This document shows positions 24,356-27,731 of a DNA stretch of 27,731 bases, one piece after another. The stretch comes from a virus (lineage: Duplodnaviria > Caudoviricetes): positions 1 through 27,731 of the IMG/VR virus record IMGVR_UViG_3300037462_000123; one strand, written 5' to 3'. The notes below the pieces were generated by a model. The model saw only the letters and a program-made list of their open reading frames with translations, did not search any database and had not been told where the DNA came from. The translations under genes were made by a program, and so were the position numbers. The number at the start of each line of letters is the position of its first letter. Within the stretch, counting starts at the first letter, position 1.

Positions 24356-24772
24356 ATGCGAGCACTCTCCCGCGGCTTCACCCTGATCGAGCTGATGATC
24401 GTCGTAGCGATCATCGCCATCCTGGCCGCCATCGCGATCCCGCAGTACCAGAACTACACCGTCCGCGCGCGCGTGTCGGAGGGGCTGAGCCTGGCCGGCT
24501 CGGCAAAGGTCGCGGTCGCCGAGGCGTTTCAAGCGCTGAACGCGTTCCCGACGTCCAACGCCGAGGCCGGGCTGCCGGCGCTCGTAACCGGGCCGGACGT
24601 CACAAGCGTGGCGGTCGGGGCTGATGGCGTCATCACGATCACGTACAACGCCGCGCGCATCCCTGGCGCCGGGACGCTGCTTCTGACGCCGGTCAGCACG
24701 GAAAGCGCGGTCACCTGGACGTGCGGCGGCGGCACGCTGCGCAATCAGTTCCGGCCGGCAACGTGTCGCTGA
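24356..24772 (+). CDS. pilA: Type IVa major pilin (138 aa prepilin)
   Basis: MRALSRG|[36 protein letters not shown] class III signal peptide with Glu5; C-terminal disulfide loop WTC...RPATCR; RBS AGGA. Confidence 0.93.
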
Positions 24773-25392: not shown

Positions 25393-25857
25393 GTGCAGCT
25401 CGGCCCGGTTGTTGAGATCGCGGAACCGTTCATCGCGCGCTGGGAAGGCCTCGCGCGCGTGCGTAACGACGGCCTGATCGTCCCCTACCTGTGCCCGGCC
25501 GGCTTCTGGACGCAGGGCTATGGGCGCCTCGTCAGCGGCCGGGATGCGCCGCCCATCAACCGCGACACCGCGCGCTTCTGGCTGTTCCAAGACATCCTGA
25601 GCCATGCGGCACAGGCGATCGTCGCGTCGCCGTCGCTGGCAATGGAGCCTCCGGCGCGCGTGGCGGTCATCACGTCGTTCGTGTTCAACCTCGGCATCGG
25701 GCGGTATCGATCAAGCACGCTCAAGCGCCGCGTCGACGCCGGGCGCTGGGATGACGTGCCCGCGCAGTTGCGGCGATGGGTGTTTGCGGGGGGCGAAAAG
25801 CTGCCGGGCCTGATCGCACGCCGCGAAGCCGAGGCGGCGATGCTGGCGGACGTCTAG
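25393..25857 (+). CDS. GH24 phage lysozyme (endolysin)
   Basis: WEG...YLCPAG.WT.GYG, SFVFNLG.G....STL.R and RWV.AGG..LPGL..RR.AE motifs; GTG start at 25393. Confidence 0.93.
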   Translation: MQLGPVVEIAEPFIARWEGLARVRNDGLIVPYLCPAGFWTQGYGRLVSGRDAPPINRDTARFWLFQDILSHAAQAIVASPSLAMEPPARVAVITSFVFNLGIGRYRSSTLKRRVDAGRWDDVPAQLRRWVFAGGEKLPGLIARREAEAAMLADV

Positions 25858-26070
25858 ATGGCGAAGATGCTCACGCCCGGCGACGAGGCGGACATGATGC
25901 GGCTCGGCGACCTGTGCACCGCGGCGGCCGAGCAACTGGCCGGCGCTGATCCGGACCCGCGCAAGCACCGGATCGACCTGTACCGGCCGGTGGTGATCGA
26001 CGGGCGGACGCTGTTCGTCAGGGTGAAGTTGACGGTGGCGTTTGTGGGCGGGGCCGCTTCGCAGATCTGA
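25858..26070 (+). CDS. Hypothetical protein (70 aa)
   Basis: Abuts the lysozyme stop; phage-like codon usage; no TM segment or lipobox. Confidence 0.55.
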   Translation: MAKMLTPGDEADMMRLGDLCTAAAEQLAGADPDPRKHRIDLYRPVVIDGRTLFVRVKLTVAFVGGAASQI

Positions 26071-26361
26071 CCCAGGCGCGCGGCTGTGGAGCGCGCGAGC
26101 ACGGCAGCGCGCTGACCTACCGTTCGTCGGCTGGCGTTCGATTCCTGCTGCGCACCTTACAGCACCCTTCACACCGTCTGATCGCACGGCGTGGACGGGA
26201 AACTGCCTAAGGCGTGTGCGATGGCGCAGCGATTTCTGCGCCGCCCCCGCGCCGCCCCAGTCGCGTGTAGACGCAGGCGTGGCGCGGTGTCGGATTCCTC
26301 CCGGCGGGCGGCTTCCCATTCGCTGCTGGCTCGGTCACTTGGCGGCAAGGCTGAGGCAGCG

Positions 26362-26396
26362 GTTATTCCGGCGGCGCGGCATAAATCAAGTTGGGC
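26362..26396 (+). other. attI-like primary cassette integration site
   Basis: GCATAAATCAA-G|TTGGGC: a GTTRRRY core at 26390 with a degenerate inverted L-box upstream and no R''/attC arm; a second GTTATTC at 26362; first junction of the array. Confidence 0.6.
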
Positions 26397-26399
26397 GTC

Positions 26400-26594
26400 T
26401 TACTGCGGGTCATAGTTCACCCGCACCACGGCCATGCAGCCCTGCGACGGGAAACTCTCCGGCACGCACTCCAGCGTGTAGAGAAAGTCCTCGTCAGCGC
26501 CGCCGCCGCTGCCATCGGCGCGCACGGCCACATGCACCGGCCAGTGGCCCGGCATCTTCTCCAGCGCCTCGCGCAGGTCATTCACCGTCATCAT
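26400..26594 (-). CDS. Cassette 1 ORF B, small phage-like protein (64 aa)
   Basis: MTVNDLREALEKMP..WPV.V N-terminus is common in small phage proteins; stop lies just inside the cassette core end. Confidence 0.7.
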   Translation of the reverse strand: MMTVNDLREALEKMPGHWPVHVAVRADGSGGGADEDFLYTLECVPESFPSQGCMAVVRVNYDPQ

Positions 26595-26817
26595 CGGTCC
26601 AGTAGCTCAGGTTCTCGGCCGCCGCGCTTTCCGGCGTCACCGTCAACCAGTCGTCGTCAGCTTCGGGCCAGCTCTCAAGCTCGGCCGCCGCCACCTCGTC
26701 GCCTGCTTCGGTCGCCCGCTTCACCTCGTCGCAAAACCTACGCTCCCATTCGTGGCGTGGGATGCCATGCTCTGGCAGTGTCAGCATCTGTCGCTCCTTG
26801 TCCCAAACCGCTTGCAT
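26578..26817 (-). CDS. Cassette 1 ORF A, small acidic protein (79 aa)
   Basis: Strong RBS AGAAGGAG before ATG 26817; ends PESAAAENLSYWTDD; overlaps ORF B. Confidence 0.75.
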   Translation of the reverse strand: MQAVWDKERQMLTLPEHGIPRHEWERRFCDEVKRATEAGDEVAAAELESWPEADDDWLTVTPESAAAENLSYWTDDDGE

Positions 26818-26846
26818 GCTCACTCCTTCTCGCTTCGGACGCAGCC

Positions 26847-26948
26847 GCCCAACAGTGCGCTCAAGCGGACCCAGGCCGGCGGGCAACGCTCAAGCTTTCC
26901 TTGACAGTTCATCTGCGCCGGCCCGGTCCGCTTAGCTCCGCGTTATGC
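26847..26948 (+). repeat. attC site 1 (102 bp)
   Basis: R'' GCCCAAC-5 nt-L'' GCTCAAGC ... L' GCTTAGC-5 nt-R' GTTATGC; extra C in L''; stem GGACC.AGGCCGGCG / CGCCGGCC.GGTCC. Confidence 0.92.
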
Positions 26949-27259
26949 CGCAGTTGTGCGTTCTCGGCGCGGAGGCGTTCCAGTTCTTCCGCTGTCATTG
27001 GAAACCACACTTCCAAATCGCTGTTCTCGCGCCAGTGCCGCCCAGTCTTTCGGTCAATCTCATCGTGCGCCCAGCCTTCCAGCAACAATCGCTCGCACTC
27101 GGCCCAATGGTCTTCGTCCAGCAGTTCGCCAAGCCGTGCGCCAAGTTTCTGCAACGGGTGGCCCATCGGTGGCAATTCCGGCAATCCTTCATCGGCTCCC
27201 ATTTCGTTCATCCAGTCCTCGTAGCTGTATCGGTCGTTAGGGTCTGCAAACGGTCGCAT
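26909..27259 (-). CDS. Cassette 2 ORF, phage-like hypothetical protein (116 aa)
   Basis: RBS GAGG before ATG 27259; coiled-coil end EELERLRAENAQLR; reads through into attC1 (HNAELSGPGRRR*). Confidence 0.75.
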   Translation of the reverse strand: MRPFADPNDRYSYEDWMNEMGADEGLPELPPMGHPLQKLGARLGELLDEDHWAECERLLLEGWAHDEIDRKTGRHWRENSDLEVWFPMTAEELERLRAENAQLRHNAELSGPGRRR

Positions 27260-27279
27260 GTCATTTCCTCGTGTCAGCG

Positions 27280-27339
27280 GCATAACAATTCATTCAAGCC
27301 GACGCCGCTTCGCGGCGCGGCTTAACTCAGGCGTTAGAT
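27280..27339 (+). repeat. attC site 2 (60 bp, aadA-family-like)
   Basis: GCATAAC AATTC ATTCAAGC CGACGCCGCTTCGCGGCGCG GCTTAAC TCAGGC GTTAGAT. Confidence 0.97.
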
Positions 27340-27526
27340 TGCAGAGAAGAACGCGCGCACGAGGCCGGCTTCCTGCCTGCTTCCCGTCCCCGCGTGGGCT
27401 CCAGTAGCGCTGTAGGAGTCGAGTGCTGCAAGGCCCGCTCTCGCGCGCGGTCCCCGTCTATCCGTGAGTGTTCGCATCGGGAGTCTCACCCTAGCGGCCG
27501 GTTCTGCGCACGCGCTCATCGCTGCA

Positions 27527-27613
27527 ATCTAACCCTGCGTTGGAGCGGACGGCCCACGGCCGTCCTTGGTTGTTGAAGTGTTGAGCGGGCCGCCGCTCAA
27601 CTCCACGTTAGGC
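27527..27613 (+). repeat. attC site 3 (87 bp)
   Basis: R'' ATCTAAC-5 nt-L'' GTTGGAGC ... L' GCTCAAC-5 nt-R' GTTAGGC; one extra base in L''; stem GG.CGGCCC / GGGCCGCC. Confidence 0.9.
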
Positions 27614-27617
27614 CCCA

Positions 27618-27731
27618 TCAATCCCAACCGCGCTCAGGCAGCGGGCCTCTGGCATAGGCGGCTTCGTTCTGCCGTATCTCTTCCAAGTGCTTGAGCCAAT
27701 CCGTGTCGCTCCAACCGACCGGTGTCGGTGG
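27618..27731 (-). CDS. Cassette 4 ORF, 3' end only
   Basis: Manual translation PPTPVGWSDTDWLKHLEEIRQNEAAYARGPLPERGWD*; stop lies just inside the GTTAGGC core. Confidence 0.6.
   Translation of the reverse strand, partial: PPTPVGWSDTDWLKHLEEIRQNEAAYARGPLPERGWD

Follow-up and report, generated by a model that had tools for sequence, protein, structure and literature searches.

In integrons, the polarity of gene cassettes is regarded as a fixed rule. The canonical cassette, described in the available text of Nivina 2016 (PMC5027507) and of Cury 2016, carries its gene on the top strand of attC, ending near R''. At the end of the virus record IMGVR_UViG_3300037462_000123 (Caudoviricetes) a short row of recombination sites appears to carry genes of the opposite polarity. 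The question raised by this locus is whether the genes are truly inverted relative to their attC sites and, if so, how such an array could be recombined and expressed, and whether its cassettes are shared with host integrons.

The window, that is, the whole stretch of DNA analysed here, is the entire 27,731-nt record. A PHROGs search of the window located, on the + strand, a replication initiator, terminase, portal, scaffold, capsid, ejection proteins, holin and endolysin. The late operon ends with the endolysin and a 70-aa ORF (25393-26070, + strand) and converges on the array, which lies between about 26070 and the contig end and is cut by the latter. A type IV pilin-like gene (24357-24772; phrog_3433) was seen amid the lysis genes.

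Polarity of the attC sites and of the cassette genes

The attC sites were located with a top-strand detector of our own, which looks for AAC, a 5-nt spacer, an 8-nt L'' with an extra fourth base, a stem, L' and GTT. In the controls, two class 1 integrons, all seven sites were assigned to the strand of the resistance genes. The detector found three sites in the window, at 26847-26948 (102 nt), 27280-27339 (60 nt) and 27527-27613 (87 nt), all on the + strand, and none in 10 shuffled windows. Each site has R''/L''/L'/R' inverted repeats with AAC/GTT on a foldable strand and folds far better than its shuffles (z -3.2 to -4.1). In all three, two unpaired bases, one of them the extra base of L'', are on the left arm of the + strand, in agreement with the preliminary description, which had taken the extra base to define + as the top strand. 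To see whether the sites might instead lie on the - strand, we scored both strands with a covariance model trained on 40 host attC sites, picked where the ORF was canonical. The three sites scored 38.8, 78.9 and 43.3 bits, respectively, on the + strand, and the best match on the - strand was 14.9 bits, at the third site. The 60-nt site is of the aadA7/aadB/Xanthomonadales type. A comparison by eye against Table S3 of Qi 2023 (PMC9892861) shows 56 of 60 bases shared with the top strand of attC-aadA7, in keeping with the earlier designation of the site as aadA-like, and the site also agrees with that of aadB, on the strand on which aadB lies.

The leftmost site is not an attC, as it showed no hairpin (z about 0 against shuffles); the array consists of three attC sites and one attI-like core. 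This core (26390) reads GTTGGGC and is exactly complementary to the R'' at 26847, GCCCAAC. It belongs to an attI-like site (26362-26396, + strand) with a GTTA repeat at 26362, a GCATA box at 26379-26383, a 6-nt spacer and a G|TT crossover at 26390/26391. Contig pieces from two public runs begin at 26390, among the 32 of 848 pieces listed.

Four cassettes were delimited by these sites, and core and inverse core are complementary in cassettes A, B and C. Cassette A (26391-26942, + strand), with its GTTGGGC/GCCCAAC pair, contains two overlapping inverted ORFs; a contig of one public run (X9) spans 26390-26757 as a single piece. ORF A2 (79 aa, 26817 to 26578, - strand) is preceded by AGGAG 5 nt before its ATG and has 11 homologues (59-100% identity), together with a weak PHROG match (phrog_4659, E 5e-4). 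ORF A1 (64 aa, 26594 to 26400, - strand), the start of which overlaps the end of A2, has a single homologue in viral contigs (69%), a plain gene that a Mu-like phage carries in its early operon without an adjoining attC. Nine of ten differences, among those listed and counted by hand, fall on third codon positions.

Cassette B (26943-27333, + strand) is a mobile unit exchanged between G|TT boundaries. In eight of the nine relatives compared, sequence identity sets in precisely at the G|TT of the + strand at 26942; the left neighbour is another one in each, and the sequences past the next G|TT differ as well. Copies 99% and 97% identical are present in other arrays, and contig pieces of public runs start at 26940-26942, again among the 32 of 848 pieces listed. 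If + is the top strand, cassettes should be swapped at the + strand G|TT; the breakpoints of cassette B agree with this prediction and therefore support the polarity. The + strand is thus the attC top strand by four independent means: the unpaired bases, the covariance scores, the identity with aadA7 and aadB, and the position of the crossover. The G|TT breakpoints and the aadA7 identity are indirect indications that IntI may recombine these sites as folded bottom strands; in the available text of Qi 2023 (PMC9892861), phage attC sites recombine with IntI1, the bottom strand better than the top.

ORF B (116 aa, 27259 to 26909, - strand), preceded by a GAGG ribosome-binding site, has no stop of its own. 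It runs through G|TT into the adjoining attC, from which its C-terminal tail and stop are taken, and its relatives measure 107-123 aa depending on the neighbour. It has 216 relatives at E <= 0.001 among 50%-identity representatives; scores in the ESM Atlas were only below 0.8. When compared with 21 distinct homologous loci, the differences were distributed as 836/400/265 over codon positions 3/1/2 of the - frame, with 613 synonymous and 430 non-synonymous codons. The same loci served to check the ORF on the + strand at 26945-27325 (126 aa) as a possible conserved gene. Its frame is interrupted by stops in 13 of 21 homologues, and substitutions concentrate on its would-be first codon position; it is a shadow ORF, and the inversion stands.

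No credible ORF was found in cassette C (27334-27607), which carries instead a 37-nt terminal inverted repeat (27333-27369/27497-27533). The resulting 201-nt structure (27333-27533), closed by a long stem, has a z of -3.6 against shuffles. The repeat extends the core and inverse core and might either compete with the folding of attC or give rise to a structured RNA. No homologue of cassette C was found in viral contigs (by its end pattern), plasmids, 401 genomes or the fetched loci. Cassette D begins at 27608 and is truncated by the contig end. It holds the 3' end of an ORF (27618-27731, - strand) with a stop 9 nt from the core and a start beyond the contig; the last residues of this ORF, GPLPERGWD, and 35 nt at its 3' end, the latter at 94% identity, are shared with a prophage cassette (locus L212).

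All conserved ORFs of the array, judged by homologues and codon-position counts, thus lie on the bottom strand, opposite to their attC sites, and none is a top-strand ORF ending near R''. The preliminary description had put four credible ORFs on the - strand; cassette C, one of the four cassettes, has none. It had also placed ribosome-binding sites next to R'' and stops near the GTT core. The former is correct for A2 and B and fails for A1, which overlaps the end of A2, and for D, the start of which is outside the contig; the latter is correct for A1 and D (8-9 nt) and fails for B, which reads through G|TT.

Polarity in phage and bacterial arrays

A survey of ORF versus attC orientation was made with the same attC pattern in viral contigs and bacterial genomes, covering 56 of 64 viral parts and 3 of 64 genome parts. 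The ORF before each site was classified with a codon model and ribosome-binding sites, the coding model being trained partly on phage genes. On class 1 controls the classifier gave six of seven sites as canonical, one as without ORF and none as inverted. With the first viral pattern, 126 sites were inverted, 14 canonical, 26 without ORF and 6 ambiguous (69 scored of 131 loci, 51 of the 131 being shorter than 1 kb). A second pattern, for another attC family, gave 135, 5, 14 and 0, respectively (63 scored of 75 loci, four contigs being also in the first set). The viral sum is 261 inverted against 19 canonical, while bacterial genomes gave 34 inverted, 190 canonical, 97 without ORF and 16 ambiguous (84 scored of 159 loci). 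The loci are not mutually independent, so that a p-value carries no weight here, and both patterns represent mainly proteobacterial attC types; the contrast between phage and host persists at stricter score cut-offs. Inversion is the rule in viral contigs and is rare in bacterial genomes; a survey of this kind had been proposed with the first description of this locus.

The exceptions were inspected on both sides. Six loci with phage-like genes account for 15 of the 34 inverted bacterial calls; two of these loci (L164 and L212) are prophages by their flanks, and most of the other 19 calls are weak. Of the nine canonical viral loci, two encode IntI and may be host flanks. PHROGs gave matches for 23 of 75 inverted ORFs, the top-scoring family representatives of 109, and for 0 of 70 opposite-strand ORFs, the shorter length of the latter favouring this result. 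The named matches include four DNA methyltransferases, Mom-like and Lar-like proteins, PAPS reductase, dATP/dGTP pyrophosphohydrolase, HNH and nucleotide enzymes. In the viral loci, 51 of the 261 inverted ORFs start inside attC and 158 start at 5-35 nt from R''.

Arrays of attC sites in phages, mostly without intI as in the window, have been published. Qi 2023 (PMC9892861) reported 17 CALINs in 10,705 phage genomes, with methyltransferase cargo as in the inverted arrays surveyed here, and called those of TJE1 and PH101 typical. We re-examined phages of that dataset. TJE1 is canonical at three of three sites, so that inversion is not obligatory. MW202573 is inverted at four of four sites, and attC1 of P12002L is antisense to both flanking methyltransferases. 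Inverted examples are therefore present in the dataset of Qi 2023, uncommented in its accessible text; the main text and the available part of the supplement state neither a rule of ORF versus attC orientation nor an attI in CALINs.

Recombination and expression of the array

The head site was compared with the first sites of 44 inverted arrays whose first core has no preceding hairpin, some of the 44 being missed attC sites. An A is found at -7 in 30 of the 44, and a GTTA-like repeat at -28 to -31 occurs 12 times. The pattern R-Y-M-K-A-N6-GTT, which is short and was defined post hoc after the sites had been seen, is present in 19 and misses 25. The head site of the window fits this pattern, with its repeat at -28. 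The sequence GYCTA-N6-GTT is seen where a host attI adjoins intI, in Sideroxydans, Methylobacillus, Curvibacter and a genome of the Rhodocyclaceae; the spacer of class 1 attI1 is 7 nt, as against 6 nt here. In Rhodanobacter caeni, CGCTTTT(T)GGGGTCTA-N6-GTTAG is common to the head site of the prophage array, which is inverted, and the chromosomal attI of the host array, which is canonical. The head site of the window (26362-26396) thus resembles a host attI, and we regard it as a putative attI. We discarded the idea that a TAAC stop codon, read in antisense, had served as the seed of the arrays: most stops miss the core by a few bases, and the head site is attI-like. In one phage locus (L004) the attI-like head site occurs twice, at about 1460 and 5170, one copy being within the array, as in the delta-attI cassettes of PMC12901181.

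No intI was found in the window by PHROGs and IntI searches, the end of the array lying outside the contig as well, and IntI is absent from most viral loci. With three attC sites in the same orientation and no intI beside them, the array may be a CALIN, the contig stopping within it. Two unrelated phages have the arrangement of a complete integron, intI beside attI, which is missing from the window. In a Mu-like phage (L033/L342) an IntI gene of 435 bits (cut-off 265) lies at L342:8001-9038, and in the other phage (L343/L353) one of 353 bits (same cut-off) lies at L343:7977-8945. Both directly follow the array, immediately past the head site, in the early operon, and are encoded on the same strand as the cassette genes. 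After a third array, a partial IntI-like gene, 52% identical to IntI1, occupies the same place (L407:5434-6062). A tyrosine recombinase adjoining cassette B in another locus (L305) scored only 36.7 bits and was rejected as IntI. An IntI above the family cut-off was also encoded in four of four tested genomes with an inverted phage-type array, where IntI may be common anyway.

As for the order of insertion, the newest cassette had been predicted to be the most promoter-distal. This gains support because the promoter-distal site resembles a host attI. It is also in line with a pair of loci (L304 and L306) that have the promoter side and cassette B in common and differ on the attI side (11 bases visible); against it, the related pair L028/L311 differs within the array. 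A search by way of the endolysin revealed no close relative of the phage, and the order of insertion at the attI-like site of the window could therefore not be traced. In a further inverted array (L310), one cassette is duplicated at 99.7%. The same array contains, between two attC sites (L310:6927-10372), a stretch of about 3.3 kb that carries a type IV CRISPR-like module, with matches to Csf2 and Csf3 that are weak and below cut-off, a cysH-like gene and one further gene; the next cassette is the 99.7% duplicate of the earlier one.

A strict consensus scan found no sigma-70-type promoter in 25800-27731 that could act as the Pc of a complete integron, and a Pc on the attI side would read these genes antisense; two terminator-like matches in the window are at chance level. 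The window further gave zero Rfam matches above gathering scores and no tRNA or tRNA-like attP. In related, fuller loci the arrays are preceded by genes for recombination (ERF or exonuclease, ssb, gp157-like), which lie on the same strand, and continue in the direction of lysis genes or a phage integrase; the position downstream of recombination genes in a leftward early operon was seen in L026, L050, L164, L004 and L310. These neighbourhoods agree with the proposal that the array is expressed in the early direction and converges on the late operon. Judging from this gene order, the cassette genes of the window are likely to be expressed in the leftward early direction of the phage from a promoter outside the contig. 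All 24 RNA runs listed contain less than 10% of the words of the window and are stored as contigs, so that neither strand nor expression level can be read from them. Soil metatranscriptomes of two studies (X4 and X11) contain a 2696-nt contig with 26942-27312, i.e. cassette B, at 100% identity, which may be DNA and is not taken as a sign of expression.

On this evidence we consider it probable that this phage locus is an array of the integron type, in which the attI-like site and the three attC sites share one orientation and the genes have the other; it is likely served by an early promoter and a host integrase. Transcription would come from the phage early promoter at the far end of the array. 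Host IntI acting in trans, or in some phages their own IntI, would recombine bottom-strand attC with attI and attC with attC; the bottom strand on which IntI acts would be the coding strand in this array. New cassettes would enter at the promoter-distal attI and would be drawn from phage accessory genes, the identifiable ones being mostly for DNA modification and anti-restriction.

Other readings of the polarity and of the exchange can be weighed against this one. A mis-called polarity, real genes on the + strand, or whole cassettes flipped by top-strand recombination might be invoked because of the 126-aa open frame on + and because aadA7-type sites recombine by the top strand at low frequency (Nivina 2016, PMC5027507). 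Such an inverted insertion, as presented there in part, likewise yields a gene facing the promoter end of the array. It flips the gene and attC together, however, whereas in the window the gene alone runs counter to its attC, and the attC sites, crossovers and first site are all on +. Together with the broken + frame, the comparison of cassette B and the covariance scores refute this reading, which we regard as extremely improbable. It is also unlikely, though less remotely so, that the sites are merely integron-derived short homologies at which phage recombinases or RecA swap cassettes with no integrase. The missing IntI, the phage recombination genes just upstream of the arrays and the different attC loop beside cassette B in two relatives (L302 and L306) would be expected in that case. 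The breakpoints, however, coincide with the G|TT base, and the sequences on their left, some of them not attC, are unrelated; adjoining attC sites differ in sequence yet keep the unpaired bases relevant to IntI; and an attI-like site is retained at the head of the array.

The preliminary description had further reasoned that the cassettes would be silent if parked in a host integron, and had proposed a cryptic gene pool shared with host arrays. The silence would indeed follow from the known logic of Pc (Nivina 2016, PMC5027507, in its available part). A single phage-host pool, in which host integrons store inverted cassettes in a silent state and phages acquire them from there, is mechanistically possible given the host type of the recombination sites. 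None of 185 phage inverted-cassette proteins (141 families), however, matched anything in 153 host loci, and the host canonical-cassette proteins tested gave no match in 76 phage loci, a comparison of little power with host samples small relative to cassette diversity. Host integrons were also searched for the antisense cassettes of the window. ORF B had matches in 2 of 401 Burkholderiales-order genomes, one being the prophage L212 and one marginal; ORF A2 had none in the 401. Against 301 Xanthomonadales-order genomes the DNA of the window matched attC sites only, among the 150 of 182 matches listed. No cassette body of the window was thus found in the host integrons of these 401 and 301 genomes. 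Host arrays in genomes with inverted prophage arrays were canonical in six cases, inverted in one, ambiguous in one and without ORF in four; the single inverted call is an inserted transposase-like ORF. The only candidate for a parked inverted cassette is a short inverted ORF of phage-like appearance (L202:4190-4423) with no family match, which heads a canonical host array beside a chromosomal gene with no visible intI. A shared cryptic pool is accordingly doubtful, and separate phage and host pools fit the observations better.

Relation to known integrons

The array has much in common with the sedentary chromosomal integrons of Betaproteobacteria and Xanthomonadales: the attC structure and the G|TT crossover are the same, the putative attI resembles the host form GYCTA-N6-GTT, and L342, L343 and L407 have intI beside attI as in host chromosomes. 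It differs in that the phage cassette genes face attI and need no Pc, that the cargo consists of phage accessory genes, and that the contig of the window has no integrase. Cassettes can also enter non-integron DNA at GWT cores (attG; Loot et al., bioRxiv 10.1101/2022.09.11.507474), and this route could seed such phage arrays. In the part of that report available, attG insertion has no bias of strand or transcription direction, whereas the first sites of the phage arrays have a longer motif like host attI. Cultured phages in INPHARED had none of the cassettes of the window, their matches being class 1 attC only. A literature search, in which subscription journals were thinly covered, gave no paper that states a systematic inversion of cassettes in phages. 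Phage attC arrays are thus already published (Qi 2023), and the inversion of polarity is apparently a real, general and unpublished variant of them.

A wider reading is offered more tentatively, as a possibility that we hold with rather less than even confidence. Temperate phages of proteobacteria may carry a mirror-image integron, with a host-type attI, host or own IntI and genes on the opposite strand, so that two insulated pools are kept. A phage with a host-type attI would otherwise express canonical host cassettes that land there. Our preferred rationale is therefore that inversion would silence such cassettes and keep a pool private to phages. Alternatively, the exposure of one strand by replication or transcription may set the rate of recombination; effects of replication on cassette recombination are described in Loot 2017 (PMC5371416). 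Many host cassettes are anti-phage, according to bioRxiv 10.1101/2024.07.02.601686. If the mirror-image integron exists, phage cassettes would be silent in hosts, and host cassettes, including the anti-phage ones, silent in phages. One machine would then serve two pools, with genes for anti-restriction and DNA modification abundant in that of the phages, and ordinary genes would be turned into new cassettes in phages.

Whatever the rationale, a large class of phage arrays reverses the polarity rule while keeping host-type attI and attC, and such arrays are far commoner than the 17 CALINs reported. Phages would thereby use integron recombination for their own accessory genes, and the polarity of sites can separate gene pools that have a recombinase in common. 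Cassette genes are present as plain phage genes too, as seen for ORF A1, which makes the origin of cassettes testable, for example in the lysogen Rhodanobacter caeni JCM 16242.
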